A stretch of 10,454 nt of DNA from a virus: UHGV virus genome UHGV-1716704; one strand, 5' to 3'. This document shows positions 1,237-10,106 of this stretch, piece after piece. Numbering within the stretch: the stretch's first letter is position 1; each line of letters begins with the position of its first letter. Position numbers and translations under genes: made by a program. The notes under the pieces were generated by a model. That model made no database searches. It was given only the letters and a program-made list of their open reading frames with translations, and had not been told where the DNA came from.

Positions 1237-1652
1237 GTTTTGCCCTGAAACTGGCGCGTGAGATGGGGCGACCCGACTGGCGCGCCATGCTTGCCGGGAT
1301 GTCATCCACGGAGTATGCCGACTGGCACCGCTTTTACAGTACCCATTATTTTCATGATGTTCTGCTGGATATGCACTTTTCCGGGCTGACGTACACCGTG
1401 CTCAGCCTGTTTTTCAGCGATCCGGATATGCATCCGCTGGATTTCAGTCTGCTGAACCGGCGCGAGGCTGACGAAGAGCCTGAAGATGATGTGCTGATGC
1501 AGAAAGCGGCAGGGCTTGCCGGAGGTGTTCGCTTTGGCCCGGACGGGAATGAAGTTATCCCTACTTCCCCGGATGTGGCGGACATGACGGAGGATGACGC
1601 AATGCTGATGACAGTATCAGAAGGGATCGCAGGAGGAGTCCGGTATGGCTGA
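814..1652 (+). CDS. T: Tail assembly chaperone gpGT, a fusion made by programmed -1 ribosomal frameshift; G frame 814-1218, then T frame from 1218 to stop at 1650-1652; predicted 279 aa
   Basis: Heptamer G GGA AAG at 1212-1218 lies in the G frame, 5 codons before the G stop. The -1 frame is open from 1218 to 1652 and encodes VFDGELSFALKLAREMGRPDWRAMLAGMSSTEYADWHRFY..., recognised as the gpT moiety. This is the conserved G/GT frameshift architecture of long-tailed phages. The T frame has no start or RBS of its own. Confidence 0.88.
1212..1218 (+). promoter_or_regulatory. Slippery heptamer GGGAAAG, the -1 programmed frameshift site for G to GT
   Basis: Read directly: gggaaag at 1212-1218, with GGA and AAG as G-frame codons at 1213-1218. 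Shifting to GGG AAA places the next codon, GTG at 1218, in the T frame. Confidence 0.88.
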
Positions 1653-4206
1653 ACCGGTAGGCGATCTGGTCGTTGATTTGAGTCTGGATGCGGCCAGATT
1701 TGACGAGCAGATGGCCAGAGTCAGGCGTCATTTTTCCGGTACGGAAAGTGATGCGAAAAAAACAGCGGCAGTCGTTGAACAGTCGCTGAGCCGACAGGCG
1801 CTGGCTGCACAGAAAGCGGGGATTTCCGTCGGGCAGTATAAAGCTGCCATGCGTATGCTGCCTGCGCAGTTCACTGACGTGGCCACGCAGCTTGCAGGCG
1901 GGCAAAGTCCGTGGCTGATCCTGCTGCAACAGGGTGGTCAGGTTAAGGACTCCTTCGGCGGGATGATCCCCATGTTCAGGGGGCTTGCCGGTGCGATCAC
2001 CCTGCCGATGGTGGGGGCCACCTCGCTGGCGGTGGCGACCGGTGCGCTGGCGTATGCCTGGTATCAGGGCAACTCAACCCTGTCCGATTTCAACAAAACG
2101 CTGGTCCTTTCCGGTCATCAGTCGGGTCTGACGGCAGATCGTATGCTGGTCCTGTCCAGAGCCGGGCAGGCGGCAGGGCTGACGTTTAACCAGACCAGCG
2201 AGTCACTCAGCGCACTGGTTAAGGCGGGGGTAAGCGGTGAGGCTCAGATTGCGTCCATCAGCCAGAGTGTGGCGCGTTTCTCCTCTGCATCCGGCGTGGA
2301 GGTGGACAAGGTCGCTGAAGCCTTCGGGAAGCTGACCACAGACCCGACGTCGGGGCTGACGGCGATGGCACGCCAGTTCCATAACGTGACGGCGGAGCAG
2401 ATTGCGTATGTTGCTCAGTTGCAGCGTTCCGGCGATGAAGCCGGGGCATTGCAGGCGGCGAACGAGGCCGCAACGAAAGGGTTTGATGACCAGACCCGCC
2501 GCCTGAAAGAGAACATGGGCACGCTGGAGACCTGGGCAGACAGGACTGCGCGGGCATTCAAATCCATGTGGGATGCGGTGCTGGATATTGGTCGTCCTGA
2601 TACCGCGCAGGAGATGCTGATTAAGGCAGAGGCTGCGTTTAAGAAAGCAGACGACATCTGGAATCTGCGCAAGGATGATTATTTTGTTAACGATGAAGCG
2701 CGGGCGCGTTACTGGGATGATCGTGAAAAGGCCCGTCTTGCGCTTGAAGCCGCCCGAAAGAAGGCTGAGCAGCAGACTCAACAGGACAAAAATGCGCAGC
2801 AGCAGAGCGATACCGAAGCGTCACGGCTGAAATATACCGAAGAGGCGCAGAAGGCTTACGAACGGCTGCAGACGCCGCTGGAGAAATATACCGCCCGTCA
2901 GGAAGAACTGAACAAGGCACTGAAAGACGGGAAAATCCTGCAGGCGGATTACAACACGCTGATGGCGGCGGCGAAAAAGGATTATGAAGCGACGCTGAAA
3001 AAGCCGAAACAGTCCGGCGTGAAAGTGTCTGCGGGCGATCGTCAGGAAGACAGTGCTCATGCTGCCCTGCTGACGCTTCAGGCAGAACTCCGGACGCTGG
3101 AGAAGCATGCCGGAGCGAATGAGAAAATCAGCCAGCAGCGCCGGGATTTGTGGAAGGCTGAAAATCAGTTCGCGGTACTGGAGGAGGCGGCACAACGTCG
3201 CCAGCTATCCGCACAGGAGAAATCCCTGCTGGCGCATAAAGATGAGACGCTGGAGTACAAACGCCAGCTGGCTGCACTTGGCGACAAGGTTACGTATCAG
3301 GAGCGCCTGAACGCGCTGGCGCAGCAGGCGGATAAATTCGCACAGCAGCAACGGGCAAAACGGGCCGCCATTGATGCGAAAAACCGGGGGCTGACTGACC
3401 GGCAGGCAGCGCGGGAAGCCACAGAACAGCGCCTGAAGGAACAGTATGGCGATAATCCTCTGGCGCTGAATAACGTCATGTCAGAGCAGAAAAAGACCTG
3501 GGCGGCTGAAGACCAGCTTCGCGGGAGCTGGATGGCAGGCCTGAAGTCCGGCTGGAGTGAGTGGGAAGAGAGCGCCACGGACAGTATGTCGCAGGTAAAA
3601 AGTGCAGCCACGCAGACCTTTGATGGTATTGCGCAGAATATGGCGGCGATGCTGACCGGCAGTGAGCAGAACTGGCGCAGCTTCACCCGTTCCGTGCTGT
3701 CCATGATGACAGAAATTCTGCTTAAGCAGGCAATGGTGGGGATTGTCGGGAGTATCGGCAGCGCCATTGGCGGGGCTGTTGGTGGCGGCGCATCCGCGTC
3801 AGGCGGTACAGCCATTCAGGCCGCTGCGGCGAAATTCCATTTTGCAACCGGAGGATTTACGGGAACCGGCGGCAAATATGAGCCAGCGGGGATTGTTCAC
3901 CGTGGTGAATTTGTCTTCACGAAGGAGGCAACCAGCCGGATTGGCGTGGGAAATCTCTACCGGCTGATGCGCGGCTATGCCACCGGCGGTTATGTCGGTG
4001 GCACCGGAAGTCCGGCGCAAATGCGGCGTTCAGAGGGTATCAGGTTTGAGCAGAACAACAACGTGGTGATTCAGAACGACGGTACGAATGGTCTGCCAGG
4101 TCCACAGATGATGAAGGCAGTGTATGACATGGCCCGCAAGGGTGCCCGTGATGAAATTCAGGCACAGATGCGCGATGGTGGTCTGTTCTCCGGAGGTGGA
4201 CGATGA
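1645..4206 (+). CDS. H: Tail tape measure protein gpH, 853 aa
   Basis: ATG at 1645 with AGGAGGA at 1631-1637; overlaps the T-frame stop by 8 nt. The 853-aa product matches lambda gpH in length and is recognised from its sequence. It has a long central stretch rich in A/E/K/Q/R/L (coiled-coil type, about 2600-3500) and a Gly/Ala-rich hydrophobic segment near the C terminus (about 3700-3830). It sits directly after G/GT, as tape measure genes do. Confidence 0.95.
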   Translation: MAEPVGDLVVDLSLDAARFDEQMARVRRHFSGTESDAKKTAAVVEQSLSRQALAAQKAGISVGQYKAAMRMLPAQFTDVATQLAGGQSPWLILLQQGGQVKDSFGGMIPMFRGLAGAITLPMVGATSLAVATGALAYAWYQGNSTLSDFNKTLVLSGHQSGLTADRMLVLSRAGQAAGLTFNQTSESLSALVKAGVSGEAQIASISQSVARFSSASGVEVDKVAEAFGKLTTDPTSGLTAMARQFHNVTAEQIAYVAQLQRSGDEAGALQAANEAATKGFDDQTRRLKENMGTLETWADRTARAFKSMWDAVLDIGRPDTAQEMLIKAEAAFKKADDIWNLRKDDYFVNDEARARYWDDREKARLALEAARKKAEQQTQQDKNAQQQSDTEASRLKYTEEAQKAYERLQTPLEKYTARQEELNKALKDGKILQADYNTLMAAAKKDYEATLKKPKQSGVKVSAGDRQEDSAHAALLTLQAELRTLEKHAGANEKISQQRRDLWKAENQFAVLEEAAQRRQLSAQEKSLLAHKDETLEYKRQLAALGDKVTYQERLNALAQQADKFAQQQRAKRAAIDAKNRGLTDRQAAREATEQRLKEQYGDNPLALNNVMSEQKKTWAAEDQLRGSWMAGLKSGWSEWEESATDSMSQVKSAATQTFDGIAQNMAAMLTGSEQNWRSFTRSVLSMMTEILLKQAMVGIVGSIGSAIGGAVGGGASASGGTAIQAAAAKFHFATGGFTGTGGKYEPAGIVHRGEFVFTKEATSRIGVGNLYRLMRGYATGGYVGGTGSPAQMRRSEGIRFEQNNNVVIQNDGTNGLPGPQMMKAVYDMARKGARDEIQAQMRDGGLFSGGGR

Positions 4207-4532
4207 AGACCTTCCGCTGGAAAGTGAAACCCGGTATGGATGTGGCTTCGGCCCCTTCTGTAAGAAAGGTGCGCTTTGGTGATGGCTATTCCCAGCGAGC
4301 GCCTGCCGGGCTGAATGCCGACCTGAAAACGTACAGCGTGACGCTTTCTGTTCCCCGTTGGGAGGCCACGGCGCTGGAGTCGTTTCTGGCTGAGCACGGG
4401 GGCTGGAAAGCCTTTCTGTGGACGCCGCCTTATGAGTGGCGGCAGATAAAGGTGACCTGCGCAAAATGGTCGTCGCGGGTCAGTATGCTGCGTGTTGAGT
4501 TCAGCGCAGAGTTTGAACAGGTGGTGAACTGA
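4203..4532 (+). CDS. M: Minor tail (tail tip) protein gpM, 109 aa
   Basis: ATG at 4203 overlaps the H stop as ATGA at 4203-4206; GGAGGTGGA lies upstream at 4191-4199. Product MKTFRWKVKPGMDVASAPSVRKVRFGDGYSQRAP... is recognised as lambda gpM, with the same 109-aa length. Confidence 0.93.
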   Translation: MKTFRWKVKPGMDVASAPSVRKVRFGDGYSQRAPAGLNADLKTYSVTLSVPRWEATALESFLAEHGGWKAFLWTPPYEWRQIKVTCAKWSSRVSMLRVEFSAEFEQVVN

Positions 4533-5230
4533 TGCAGGATATCCGGCAGGAAACACTGAATGAATGCACCCGTGCGGAGCAGTCGGCCAGCGTGGTGCTC
4601 TGGGAAATCGACCTGACAGAGGTCGGTGGAGAACGTTATTTTTTCTGTAATGAGCAGAACGAAAAAGGTGAGCCGGTCACCTGGCAGGGGCGACAGTATC
4701 AGCCGTATCCCATTCAGGGGAGTGGTTTTGAACTGAATGGCAAAGGCACCAGTACGCGCCCCACACTGACGGTTTCTAACCTGTACGGTATGGTCACCGG
4801 GATGGCGGAAGATCTGCAGAGTCTGGTCGGCGGAACGGTGGTCCGGCGTAAGGTTTACGCCCGTTTTCTGGATGCGGTGAACTTCGTCAACGGAAACAGT
4901 GACGCCGATCCGGAGCAGGAGGTGATCAGCCGCTGGCGCATCGAGCAGTGCAGCGAACTGAGCGCGGTGAGTGCCTCTTTTGTACTGTCCACGCCGACGG
5001 AAACGGATGGCGCTGTTTTTCCGGGACGTATCATGCTGGCCAACACCTGCACCTGGACCTATCGCGGTGACGAGTGCGGTTATAGCGGTCCGGCTGTCGC
5101 GGATGAATATGACCAGCCAACGTCCGATATCACGAAGGATAAATGCAGCAAATGCCTGAGCGGTTGTAAGTTCCGCAATAACGTCGGCAACTTTGGCGGC
5201 TTCCTTTCCATTAACAAACTTTCGCAGTAA
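4532..5230 (+). CDS. L: Minor tail (tail tip) protein gpL, 232 aa, with C-terminal Cys cluster
   Basis: ATG at 4532 overlaps the M stop as TGATG. Product MQDIRQETLNECTRAEQSASVVLWEIDLTEVGGERYFFCNEQ... is recognised as lambda gpL, same 232-aa length. C-terminal cysteines fall in CTWTYRGDECGY and DKCSKCLSGCKF (nt about 5049-5171). Confidence 0.93.
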   Translation: MQDIRQETLNECTRAEQSASVVLWEIDLTEVGGERYFFCNEQNEKGEPVTWQGRQYQPYPIQGSGFELNGKGTSTRPTLTVSNLYGMVTGMAEDLQSLVGGTVVRRKVYARFLDAVNFVNGNSDADPEQEVISRWRIEQCSELSAVSASFVLSTPTETDGAVFPGRIMLANTCTWTYRGDECGYSGPAVADEYDQPTSDITKDKCSKCLSGCKFRNNVGNFGGFLSINKLSQ

Positions 5231-5235
5231 ATCCC

Positions 5236-5979
5236 ATGACACAGACAGAATCAGCGATTCTGGCGCACGCCCGGCGATGTGCGCCAGCGGAGTCGTGCGG
5301 CTTCGTGGTAAGCACGCCGGAGGGGGAAAGATATTTCCCCTGCGTGAATATCTCCGGTGAGCCGGAGGCGTATTTCCGTATGTCGCCGGAAGACTGGCTG
5401 CAGGCAGAAATGCAGGGTGAGATTGTGGCGCTGGTCCACAGCCACCCCGGTGGTCTGCCCTGGCTGAGTGAGGCCGACCGGCGGCTGCAGGTGCAGAGTG
5501 ATTTGCCGTGGTGGCTGGTCTGCCGGGGGACGATTCATAAGTTCCGCTGTGTGCCGCATCTCACCGGGCGGCGCTTTGAGCACGGTGTGACGGACTGTTA
5601 CACACTGTTCCGGGATGCTTATCATCTGGCGGGGATTGAGATGCCGGACTTTTATCGTGAGGATGACTGGTGGCGTCACGGCCAGAATCTCTATCTGGAT
5701 AATCTGGAGGCGACGGGGCTGTATCAGGTGCCGTTGTCAGCGGCACAGCCGGGCGATGTGCTGCTGTGCTGTTTTGGTTCATCAGTGCCGAATCACGCCG
5801 CAATTTACTGCGGCGACGGCGAGCTGCTGCACCATATTCCTGAACAACTGAGCAAACGAGAGAGGTACACCGACAAATGGCAGCGACGCACACACTCCCT
5901 CTGGCGTCACCGGGCATGGCACGCATCTGCCTTTACGGGGATTTACAACGATTTGGCCGCCGCATCGACCTTCGTGTGA
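5236..5979 (+). CDS. K: Tail tip assembly protein gpK, 247 aa as the full ORF: N-terminal JAB/MPN (JAMM) metallopeptidase domain and C-terminal NlpC/P60 domain. The in-frame Met at 5380 would give the 199-aa form.
   Basis: ORF begins 5 nt after the L stop. JAMM signature HSHPGGLPWLSEAD (H-x-H-x7-S-x2-D) is present; a candidate upstream Glu lies in PAESCGFV, within the N-terminal 48 codons. NlpC/P60-type Cys appears in GVTDCYTLFRDAYHLAG and His in NHAAIYCGDGELLHH. No strong SD precedes 5236, so translational coupling to L is assumed and the start is uncertain. Confidence 0.85.
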   Translation: MTQTESAILAHARRCAPAESCGFVVSTPEGERYFPCVNISGEPEAYFRMSPEDWLQAEMQGEIVALVHSHPGGLPWLSEADRRLQVQSDLPWWLVCRGTIHKFRCVPHLTGRRFEHGVTDCYTLFRDAYHLAGIEMPDFYREDDWWRHGQNLYLDNLEATGLYQVPLSAAQPGDVLLCCFGSSVPNHAAIYCGDGELLHHIPEQLSKRERYTDKWQRRTHSLWRHRAWHASAFTGIYNDLAAASTFV

Positions 5980-6548
5980 AAACGGGGGCTGAAGCCATCC
6001 GGGCACTGGCCACACAGCTCCCGGCGTTTCGTCAGAAACTGAGCGACGGCTGGTATCAGGTACGGATTGCCGGGCGGGACGTCAGCACGTCCGGGTTAAC
6101 GGCGCAGTTACATGAGACTCTGCCTGATGGCGCTGTGATTCATATTGTTCCCAGAGTCGCCGGGGCCAAGTCAGGTGGCGTATTCCAGATTGTCCTGGGG
6201 GCTGCCGCCATTGCCGGATCATTCTTTACCGCCGGAGCCACCCTTGCAGCATGGGGGGCAGCCATTGGGACCGGTGGTATGACCGGCATCCTGTTTTCTC
6301 TCGGTGCCAGTATGGTGCTCGGTGGTGTGGCGCAGATGCTGGCACCGAAAGCCAGAACTCCCCGTACACAGACAACGGATAACGGTAAGCAGAACACCTA
6401 TTTCTCCTCACTGGATAACATGGTTGCCCAGGGCAATGTTCTGCCTGTTCTGTACGGGGAAATGCGCGTGGGGTCTCGCGTGGTTTCTCAGGAGATCAGC
6501 ACGGCAGACGAAGGGGACGGTGGTCAGGTTGTGGTGATTGGTCGCTGA
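5877..6548 (+). CDS. I: Tail tip assembly protein gpI, 223 aa: N-terminal ubiquitin-like domain ending near a Gly-Gly, then a Gly/Ala-rich hydrophobic C-terminal region
   Basis: ATG at 5877 with GAGAGAGG at 5858-5865. Overlaps the 3' end of K by 103 nt in a different frame. Product MAATHTLPLASPGMARICLYGDLQRFGRRIDLRVKTGAEAIRALATQLP... is recognised as lambda gpI, same 223-aa length. Gly100-Gly101 are encoded at 6174-6179; the segment VFQIVLGAAAIAGSFFTAGATLAAWGAAIGTGGMTGILFSLGASMVLGGVAQ follows. Confidence 0.9.
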   Translation: MAATHTLPLASPGMARICLYGDLQRFGRRIDLRVKTGAEAIRALATQLPAFRQKLSDGWYQVRIAGRDVSTSGLTAQLHETLPDGAVIHIVPRVAGAKSGGVFQIVLGAAAIAGSFFTAGATLAAWGAAIGTGGMTGILFSLGASMVLGGVAQMLAPKARTPRTQTTDNGKQNTYFSSLDNMVAQGNVLPVLYGEMRVGSRVVSQEISTADEGDGGQVVVIGR

Positions 6549-6608: not shown

Positions 6609-9600
6609 ATGGGTAAAGGCAGCAGTAAGGGGCATACCCCGCGCGAAGCGAAGGACAACCTGAAGTCCACGCAGCTGCTGAGTGTGATCGATGCCATCAG
6701 CGAAGGGCCGGTTGAAGGTCCGGTGGATGGATTAAAAAGCGTGCTGCTGAACAGTACGCCGGTGCTGGACAGTGAGGGGAATACCAATATATCCGGCGTC
6801 ACGGTGGTGTTCCGGGCAGGTGAGCAGGAGCAGTCACCGCCGGAGGGATTTGAATCCTCCGGCTCCGAGACGGTGCTGGGTACGGAAGTGAAATATGACA
6901 CGCCGATCACCCGCACCATTACGTCTGCAAACATCGACCGTCTGCGCTTTACCTTCGGCGTGCAGGCACTGGTGGAAACCACCTCAAAGGGGGACCGGAA
7001 TCCGTCGGAAGTCCGCCTGCTGGTTCAGATCCAGCGTAATGGTGGCTGGGTGACGGAAAAAGACATCACCATTAAGGGCAAAACCACCTCGCAGTATCTG
7101 GCCTCGGTGGTGGTGGGTAACCTGCCGCCGCGCCCGTTCAATATACGGATGCGCAGGATGACGCCGGACAGCACCACAGACCAGCTGCAGAACAAAACGC
7201 TCTGGTCGTCATACACCGAAATCATCGATGTGAAACAGTGCTACCCGAACACGGCACTGGTCGGCGTGCAGGTGGACTCGGAACAGTTCGGCAGCCAGCA
7301 GGTGAGCCGTAATTATCATCTTCGCGGGCGCATTCTGCAGGTGCCGTCGAACTATAACCCGCAGACGCGGCAATACAGCGGTATCTGGGACGGAACGTTT
7401 AAGCCAGCATACAGCAACAACATGGCCTGGTGTCTGTGGGATATGCTGACCCATCCGCGCTACGGCATGGGGAAGCGTCTCGGTGCGGCGGATGTGGACA
7501 AATGGGCGCTGTATGTCATCGGCCAGAATTGCGACCAGTCGGTGCCGGATGGCTTTGGTGGCACGGAGCCGCGCATCACCTGTAATGCCTACCTGACCAC
7601 ACAGCGCAAGGCGTGGGATGTGCTCAGTGATTTCTGCTCGGCGATGCGCTGTATGCCGGTATGGAACGGGCAGACGCTGACGTTCGTGCAGGACCGACCA
7701 TCAGATAAGGTGTGGACCTATAACCGCAGTAATGTGGTGATGCCGGATGATGGCGCGCCGTTCCGCTACAGCTTCAGCGCCCTGAAGGACCGCCATAATG
7801 CCGTTGAGGTGAACTGGATTGACCCGGATAACGGCTGGGAGACGGCGACAGAGCTTGTGGAGGACACGCAGGCCATTGCCCGTTACGGTCGTAACGTCAC
7901 GAAGATGGATGCCTTTGGCTGTACCAGTCGGGGGCAGGCACACCGCGCCGGGCTGTGGCTGATTAAAACGGAGCTGCTGGAAACGCAGACCGTGGACTTC
8001 AGCGTGGGCGCAGAAGGGCTTCGTCATGTACCGGGCGATGTCATTGAAATCTGCGATGATGACTATGCGGGTATCAGTACCGGCGGGCGCGTGCTGGCGG
8101 TGAACAGCCAGGCGCGGACACTGACGCTCGACCGTGAAATCATGCTGCCATCCTCCGCCACCACGCTGATAAGCCTGGTTGACGGAAGTGGCAATCCGGT
8201 CAGCGTGGAGGTTCAGTCCGTCACCGACGGCGTGAAGGTAAAAGTGAGCCGTGTTCCTGACGGTGTTGCTGAATACAGCGTATGGGGGCTGAAGCTGCCG
8301 ACGCTGCGCCAGCGACTGTTCCGCTGCGTGAGTATCCGTGAGAACGACGACGGCACGTATGCCATCACCGCCGTGCAGCATGTACCGGAAAAAGAAGCCA
8401 TCGTGGATAACGGGGCGCACTTTGACGGCGACCAGAGCGGCACGGTGAATGGTGTCACGCCGCCAGCGGTGCAGCACCTGACCGCAGAAGTCACTGCAGA
8501 CAGCGGGGAATATCAGGTGCTGGCGCGATGGGACACACCGAAGGTGGTGAAGGGCGTGAGCTTCCTGCTTCGCCTGACCGTGGCAGCGGATGACGGCAGT
8601 GAGCGGCTGGTCAGCACGGCCCGGACGACGGAAACCACATACCGCTTCACGCAACTGGCGCTGGGAAACTACAGGCTGACAGTCCGGGCGGCAAATGCCT
8701 GGGGGCAGCAGGGCGATCCGGCATCGGTATCGTTCCGTATTGCCGCACCGGCAGCGCCGTCGCGGATTGAGCTGACGCCGGGCTATTTTCAGATAACCGC
8801 CACGCCCCATCTTGCCGTTTATGATCCGACGGTACAGTTTGAGTTCTGGTTCTCGGAAAAGCGGATTGCGGATATCAGGCAGGTTGAAACCACAGCCCGC
8901 TATCTTGGCACGGCGCTGTACTGGATAGCCGCCAGTATCAATATCAAACCGGGCCATGATTATTATTTTTACATCCGCAGTGTGAACACCGTTGGCAAAT
9001 CGGCATTTGTGGAGGCTGTTGGCCAGCCGAGTGATGATGCATCCGGCTATCTGGATTTTTTCAAAGGCGAGATAGGGAAAACCCATCTGGCTCAGGAGCT
9101 GTGGACGCAGATTGATAACGGTCAGCTTGCGCCTGACCTGGCTGAAATCAGGACGTCCATTACGGATGTCAGCAATGAAATCACGCAGACCGTCAATAAG
9201 AAACTGGAAGACCAGAGTGCAGCGATCCAGCAGATACAGAAGGTTCAGGTTGATACAAATAATAACCTGAACAGCATGTGGGCTGTGAAGCTGCAGCAGA
9301 TGCAGGACGGACGCCTTTATATCGCGGGTATTGGTGCCGGTATTGAGAACACCCCTGACGGCATGCAGAGTCAGGTGCTGCTGGCGGCGGACAGGATTGC
9401 GATGGTTAATCCTGCGAATGGCAACACAAAGCCGATGTTTGTTGGTCAGGGCGATCAGATATTCATGAATGAAGTGTTCCTGAAACGCCTGACGGCTCCC
9501 ACCATTACCAGCGGCGGTAATCCTCCGGCATTTTCCCTGACACCGGACGGAAAACTGACCGCTAAAAATGCAGATATCAGTGGCAGTGTGAATGCGAACG

Positions 9601-10106
9601 CCGGGACGCTCAACAATGTCACGGTAAATGAAAACTGTACGATTAAGGGCATGCTGGAGGCGACTCAGGTCAGAGGTGACTTCGTTAAAGCTGTATCCAA
9701 ATCATTCCCGAAACAGGCTGGTACGTGGGGTAATACGGAAACACCAAACGGGACGGTTACAGTCACCATCAGCGATGATCATAACTTTGACCGTCAAATC
9801 ATTATTCCGCCCATTATCTTTAACGGAATAGCGTATAGCGATCCGGGAAGTGGTAATAACCCGGGAGGTACAAGATACACGGGTTATGGTTTTGAAGTTC
9901 GCAAAAACGGCGTATTAATCGCATCCAGAGAAACTAAAGGGGCCATTCCCGGTAGTTACAGTGCAGTTATTGATATGCCGAGTGGCAGGGGAAGCGTCAC
10001 TCTGGAGTTTAAGATTTTCCAGAAAGGCAATCAGGGGGCAGGCAATATCACCGACTGTACGGTGATTGTGACCAAAAAAGCCGCTTCCGGCATCAGTATT
10101 CGTTGA
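6609..10106 (+). CDS. J: Central tail fibre / host specificity protein gpJ, 1165 aa
   Basis: ATG at 6609 with GGAG at 6597-6600. N terminus [34 protein letters not shown]... and most of the body are recognised as lambda-type J. Central fibronectin-III-like region (about 8380-9000) and a C-terminal receptor-binding region. Length differs from the 1132 aa I recall for lambda J. Stop TGA at 10104-10106. Confidence 0.95.

Follow-up and report, generated by a model that had tools for sequence, protein, structure and literature searches.

Gene K and its neighborhood

The window, by which we mean the whole 10,454-nucleotide stretch of the virus genome UHGV-1716704 that was analyzed, is a lambdoid tail-gene block in which genes H, M and L are followed by the open reading frame (ORF) of gene K and by genes I and J. 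We concentrate on the 5' end of gene K, where the frame contains 48 codons that are absent from the annotation of the lambda reference. The features to which we refer are listed below, with the basis of each assignment in parentheses where one applies.

1645-4206: gene H (ORF list, Pfam)
4203-4532: gene M (ORF list, Pfam)
4532-5230, + strand: gene L, minor tail protein L (ORF list, Pfam PF05100)
5236-5979, + strand: gene K at full length, 247 codons plus stop, 28.3 kDa, with an N-terminal JAB/JAMM and a C-terminal NlpC/P60 domain (ORF list, Pfam)
5236-5379, + strand: the 48 codons absent from the lambda reference annotation, encoding one helix (3-15) and two strands (21-27, 30-36) of the JAB fold
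5290-5292, + strand: Glu19 codon GAG, within E-S-C-G, predicted general acid-base residue of the JAMM site
5364-5382, + strand: GGAGG (5364-5368), an 11-nt spacer and ATG 5380 (Met49), where the lambda reference and many gene finders place the start
5370, + strand: the G absent from J02459/NC_001416 (alignment, allele survey)
5437-5478, + strand: zinc-binding half of the JAMM motif, H68-S-H70-x7-S78-x2-D81 (translation)
5566-5907, + strand: NlpC/P60 (C40) papain-like peptidase domain, K residues 111-224 (Pfam, conservation, Foldseek)
5877-6548, + strand: gene I, with a ubiquitin-like domain at residues 14-97, Gly-Gly at 100-101 (nt 6174-6179) and then a structural part (PF06805)
6609-10106: gene J (ORF list, Pfam)

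The initial annotation, made from the letters of the window, had described the K frame as open back to ATG 5236, 5 nt past the L stop, and the ORF list confirms this, with a product of 247 aa. ATG 5236 is the earliest possible start downstream of the preceding in-frame stop (ORF 5236-5979), and it follows the TAA that ends L (5228-5230) after 5 nt (5231-5235). In the translation, PAESCGFVV forms residues 17-25 and HSHPGGLPWLSEAD forms residues 68-81 (nt 5437-5478). An open frame of 48 codons proves nothing by itself, the chance of such a stop-free run at this base composition being about 0.17; to judge from the sequence, it is the profile match, the conservation and the substitution pattern that give it significance.

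In its position, K corresponds to the TAPK/gpK orthologues: it lies between L (PF05100) and I (PF06805), with J downstream, in a lambdoid tail operon. The order L-K-I-J is common to loci from E. coli, Edwardsiella, Yersinia, Salmonella and Citrobacter, and the gap between L and K is 4-14 nt in every one of these genera. As no recognizable Shine-Dalgarno sequence stands before ATG 5236, we infer that initiation of K is coupled to termination of L; translation of K would most likely begin at ATG 5236, and coupled initiation would also suit a catalytic factor of low abundance. Pfam finds nothing in the antisense ORFs at 5251-5679 and 4430-5242 or in the +2-frame ORF at 5193-5360, Rfam finds nothing within 4900-6200, and promoter-like or terminator-like sites in that same interval are no commoner than in shuffled sequence.

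Several observations concern the flanking genes. Annotations disagree on where gene I begins: in lambda the start is ATG 5877 (223 aa, with a 103-nt overlap with K), and PGAP takes GTG 5976 (190 aa), which overlaps the K stop as GTGA. The 190-aa call would drop about 20 residues of the Lambda_tail_I domain (residues 14-97 of the long form), and Met14 of that form (ATG 5916) is a further candidate start. The product of gene J is 1165 aa in the window versus 1132 aa in lambda. As a whole, the window is closest to phages ev099 and PhiR42_1 (~96%), its L-K-I segment being 99.6% lambda-like; the tail region of the window is mosaic.

The two predicted peptidase domains of K

We compared the long and short forms of K with the Pfam profile Prok-JAB (PF14464; length 114, cut-off 25 bits). 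The 247-aa protein scores 52.3 bits, with residues 3-104 aligned to profile positions 3-112 of 114, whereas the 199-aa protein scores 23.3 bits, below the cut-off, and reaches only positions 63-112. The first 48 residues taken alone score 23.4 bits and cover positions 3-41, which places them inside a JAB alignment that, as the initial annotation allowed, they might have fallen outside. Residues 111-224 match the NlpC/P60 profile (PF00877) at 48.3 bits (cut-off 23), so that the 247-aa protein exceeds the cut-offs of both families that had been proposed for an HMM search.

The JAMM signature, E-xn-H-S/T-H-x7-S-xx-D, includes a glutamate that holds the catalytic water and serves as acid-base catalyst (Ambroggio et al. 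2003, PMC300881). This motif is complete in K, as E19-x48-H68-S69-H70-(P71-L77)-S78-E79-A80-D81. Across 60 homologues, all of its residues are at least 90% conserved, and H68, H70 and D81 are invariant. The initial annotation had expected a conserved glutamate, in the form E-x-C-G and ahead of H-x-H, within the upstream 48 codons; this is E19, in PAESCGFVV. When PDB sequences are searched by profile, the E-x-C-G of K aligns with the E-x-C-G of the solved JAB proteins 2KKS, 2KCQ and PfJAMM1 (5LDA), the K segment ILAHAR..AP.ESCG being aligned to MLAHARQALPNEACG of 2KKS. E19 is the predicted general acid-base glutamate and H68, H70 and D81 are the predicted zinc ligands, with the geometry of E19 relative to the zinc site read from the alignment. 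The further suggestion, that a 199-aa product would be without the catalytic glutamate and that the 247-aa form is more likely the real protein, is supported by the Pfam scores and the conservation of E19.

The AlphaFold2 model of the 247-aa protein, built on a 60-sequence alignment, has a pLDDT of 97.0 and a pTM of 0.91. In this model, residues 3-15 form a helix and residues 21-27 and 30-36 form strands, all of them core elements of the JAB fold. Going by the model, a 199-aa K would be without these three elements and would carry a half JAB domain that could not fold. A Foldseek search of the PDB retrieves, for the N-terminal domain of K, PfJAMM1 (5LDA; rmsd 2.5 Å over 107 columns, TM score by target 0.67) and also CSN5, Rpn11 and AMSH, and by its predicted structure K has the MPN fold. 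For the C-terminal domain, the same search retrieves MepS, LytE and other NlpC/P60 enzymes. In the 60 homologues, D120 and H199 are invariant and C121, H187 and H200 are at least 90% conserved; the NlpC/P60 domain is probably active, a prediction based on the strong conservation of C121, H187 and H199.

Conservation of the first 48 codons extends well beyond the immediate relatives of lambda. In 17 close relatives (68-96% identity) from E. coli, Shigella, Salmonella, Citrobacter, Edwardsiella and Yersinia, residues I8, L9, A10, H11, A12, A16, P17, E19, S20, C21 and G22 are invariant. An exhaustive search returned 2,762 relatives of K, and in full-length relatives at 35-60% identity the alignment begins at their own residues 3-15 and at residues 4-10 of the query. 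P17, E19, C21, G22, N38 and F47 are conserved at 90% or more in the 60 homologues, whose identity to K is 33-74% and in which the alignment begins within about the first 10 residues. At the nucleotide level, we compared codons 2-48 with those of seven relatives, one of which (L013) is identical there. In all six informative comparisons pN is far below pS, as in relative L012, which has 12 synonymous versus 3 non-synonymous differences, and in the four comparisons in which dN/dS could be computed it is 0.07-0.25, like the rest of gene K. Codons 2-48 are, on this substitution pattern, under purifying selection.

The internal start and the lambda reference

Over positions 5100-6100, identity between the window and lambda or its closest relatives is 99.5-99.6%. 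In J02459 and NC_001416, L is annotated at 13429-14127 and K at 14276-14875, as a protein of 199 aa, with a 148-nt gap between the two. The reference start of K (14276) equals the Met encoded at window position 5380, just as the initial annotation had stated.

One way to accommodate both lengths is that the gene yields two products, the 247-aa K and a 199-aa protein, initiated at Met49 and containing the NlpC/P60 domain alone, with a role of its own, in a nested-gene arrangement of the kind found elsewhere in lambda. A GGAGG stands 11 nt ahead of ATG 5380, in contrast to the lack of a recognizable Shine-Dalgarno sequence at ATG 5236; gene finders often pick Met49, as seen in the 199-aa gene-call clusters P0055, P0063, P0065 and P0070, which have 1.7-4.9 thousand members each; and phages with NlpC/P60-only versions of TAPK are mentioned in a passage of Iyer et al. 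(PMC1779556). Yet neither Met49 nor the GGAGG is conserved. Codon 49 is ATT, ATC or ATA in three of the seven relatives, and many of the 17 proteins in the alignment have Ile at position 49, among them E. coli prophage proteins at 87% identity; the GGAGG belongs to Glu-Pro-Glu codons and is gone in distant relatives. The 11-nt spacer also exceeds the optimum, and the shorter protein would, according to the model, bear the half JAB domain described above. We consider a two-product gene improbable, and give slightly less credence still to the narrower version in which a 199-residue NlpC/P60-only isoform has a distinct role in those lambda-type phages that keep both the GGAGG and an ATG at codon 49. 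If such an isoform were made, the historical 199-aa K would be a real, perhaps minor, protein and not an annotation artefact alone. The precomputed Pfam lists of the four 199-aa clusters include no JAB domain.

The reading that we favor, in which K is the 247-aa protein, leads back to the reference itself. A four-way alignment over 5220-5400 has a single difference: the reference is without the G at window position 5370 (GGAGGC[G]TATTTC), that is, after lambda nt 14266, and HK630 and lambda imm21 carry it. The 1-nt length difference relative to lambda that the initial annotation had suspected is therefore real. In J02459/NC_001416, the frame that opens at ATG 14133 meets a stop after 76 codons, and the rest of K can be reached only from a later Met. 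The absence of one G after nt 14266 of J02459 thus breaks the K frame, and annotators fell back on the next Met behind a GGAGG.

To see how common the G-less allele is, we ran a 70-nt G-less probe against 3,926 complete E. coli genomes and 50,697 phage records. It is found at none of the 7,209 matching places in the E. coli genomes, none of which aligns without a 1-nt gap. Among the phage records, exact full-length matches occur only in J02459, NC_001416, OR474059 and OR974322. OR474059 is flagged UNVERIFIED and has no annotation; OR974322 copies the coordinates and product names of NC_001416, and this exact repetition of the RefSeq coordinates suggests a reference-guided assembly. We take both to be reference-derived. 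The G is present in independently sequenced lambda (LC730321, PV340536, KT232076, the imm21 and imm434 hybrids, and DE3) and in the close lambda relative HK630.

J02459 also has an extra G near nt 138 (nt 137-139), reading GCGAGGCTT versus GCGAGCTT in LC730321 and lambda imm434. This extra base offsets the one missing from K, so the total length remains 48,502. Vendor notes on commercial lambda DNA presumably list the same two sites as '138delG' and '14266insG'. The differences at about nt 138 and after nt 14266 are both real between J02459 and resequenced lambdas, and a second single-G discrepancy fits base-calling errors in the 1982 sequence.

It could instead be that the reference is right for its strain, the lambda cI857 S7 sequenced in 1982 having truly been without the G, with K either split into 76-aa and 199-aa parts or read through by ribosomal frameshifting. 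The same allele in OR474059 and OR974322, together with an annotation that has stood for decades, speaks for this, but the provenance of those two records, the G in all clearly independent lambda sequences, its presence in every E. coli prophage copy surveyed and the compensating extra base near nt 138, which is typical of reading errors, speak against it, and no slippery heptamer is evident at GGAGGCTATTTC. A genuine G-less strain is in our judgment unlikely, and less plausible than two products. That the upstream 48 codons are an untranslated chance frame and K begins at Met49, a reading to which the expected frequency of such stop-free runs and the absent Shine-Dalgarno sequence would lend themselves, has a negligible probability given the profile match, the conservation in distant relatives, the purifying selection, the confidently predicted fold and the conserved spacing between L and K, and the other strand and frames offer no Pfam or Rfam match or conserved alternative. 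As far as sequence evidence goes, the Pfam match, the conservation across 60 homologues and the substitution pattern exclude a chance ORF.

We conclude that the missing G is very probably a base-calling error of the reference rather than a strain mutation, and the 199-residue K of the lambda reference is, as the alignments and the allele survey indicate, an artefact of it. Our literature search found no printed statement of a K frameshift or sequencing error; Casjens and Hendrix 2015 lay outside its scope. We are highly confident that the tail-assembly gene K has its true 5' end in 5236-5400, that the product is a 247-residue, 28-kDa two-domain predicted peptidase, and that the short form is an artefact.

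Proposed role of gpK and consequences for its annotation

In the long form of K, residues 1-107 make up a complete JAB/JAMM domain, of the predicted zinc metallopeptidase (MPN+) type, and residues 111-224 an NlpC/P60 papain-like domain. In the mechanism that we propose, the JAB domain would act as a deubiquitinase-type protease that removes the N-terminal ubiquitin-like (Ubl) domain of gpI after Gly-Gly, during assembly of the tail tip. The TAPK family, as set out in the passages that Iyer, Burroughs and Aravind devote to it (2006, PMC1779556), combines JAB and NlpC/P60 domains and is predicted to release the ubiquitin-like domain of TAPI at its C-terminal glycine; its architecture, neighborhood and predicted reaction are the same as those of K. 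Those passages do not discuss the start codon of lambda K. According to a report of experimental work presented by Davidson at a 2025 meeting (PMC12908700), gpK cleaves the gpI Ubl, and does so only once gpI has engaged the tail-tip complex. The literature describes gpK as absent from virions, and the cryo-EM structure of the tail resolves gpI from residue 101 onward (PMC11101478). In the product of gene I in the window, the Pfam domain Lambda_tail_I (PF06805) covers residues 14-97, Gly-Gly follows at 100-101, and V102 comes next; a Gly-Gly that adjoins the first resolved residue of gpI, 101, fits cleavage after Gly-Gly by the JAB domain of K. The gpI-cleavage model leaves the role of the NlpC/P60 domain unexplained.

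Relative to known JAMM enzymes, K shares its fold and the full E...HSH-x7-S-xx-D motif with PfJAMM1 (5LDA), AfJAMM (1R5X), 2KKS, 2KCQ and the desampylase family NF041370. It differs from the stand-alone archaeal and bacterial enzymes, to which it is 21-25% identical, in being fused to an NlpC/P60 domain and in its predicted substrate, gpI, in which Ubl and protein are fused linearly instead of being conjugated by an isopeptide bond.

Neither the protein nor its architecture nor its long form is new, and most modern annotations give the long form. PGAP calls a 744-nt K gene in all four E. coli prophages that we inspected, starting 4-10 nt past L, and the 2025 lambda record PV340536 annotates a K of 247 aa, from which the K of the window differs by 4 nucleotides and 4 residues (Y140H, H148N, H229R, A241V). 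The exact 247-aa protein of the window is found on at least 1,000 contigs, and one database name for it is 'Predicted metal-dependent protease of the PAD1/JAB1 superfamily'. The identical 247-aa sequence also appears in RefSeq, from E. coli lambdoid prophages, as 'MULTISPECIES: C40 family peptidase' or 'phage tail protein'; the C40 product name refers to the NlpC/P60 domain alone and conceals the JAB domain. Lambda gpK (TIPK_LAMBD/P03729, AAA96551) is the same gene in the same L-K-I-J context, and its reference entries give 199 aa, whereas the window and all resequenced lambdas encode 247 aa. The short K persists in J02459, NC_001416, UniProt TIPK_LAMBD, HK630 and lambda imm21, and the K of KT232076 is a 211-aa variant.

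The lambda reference and UniProt still carry the legacy error. The long K brings no new biology in itself, and the value of the finding lies in curation: the most-used records (J02459, NC_001416, P03729) give a K that is without a helix, two strands and the catalytic glutamate. The truncated protein has been copied into the newer records of HK630 and lambda imm21, and it also fed a 2020 review, in which structure prediction on the 199-aa K gave a peptidase domain at residues 52-182 only. If lambda K is cloned, modeled or mutated on the basis of the reference, its JAB domain would be non-functional, which is relevant to present studies of gpK as a deubiquitinase-like processing enzyme of gpI.
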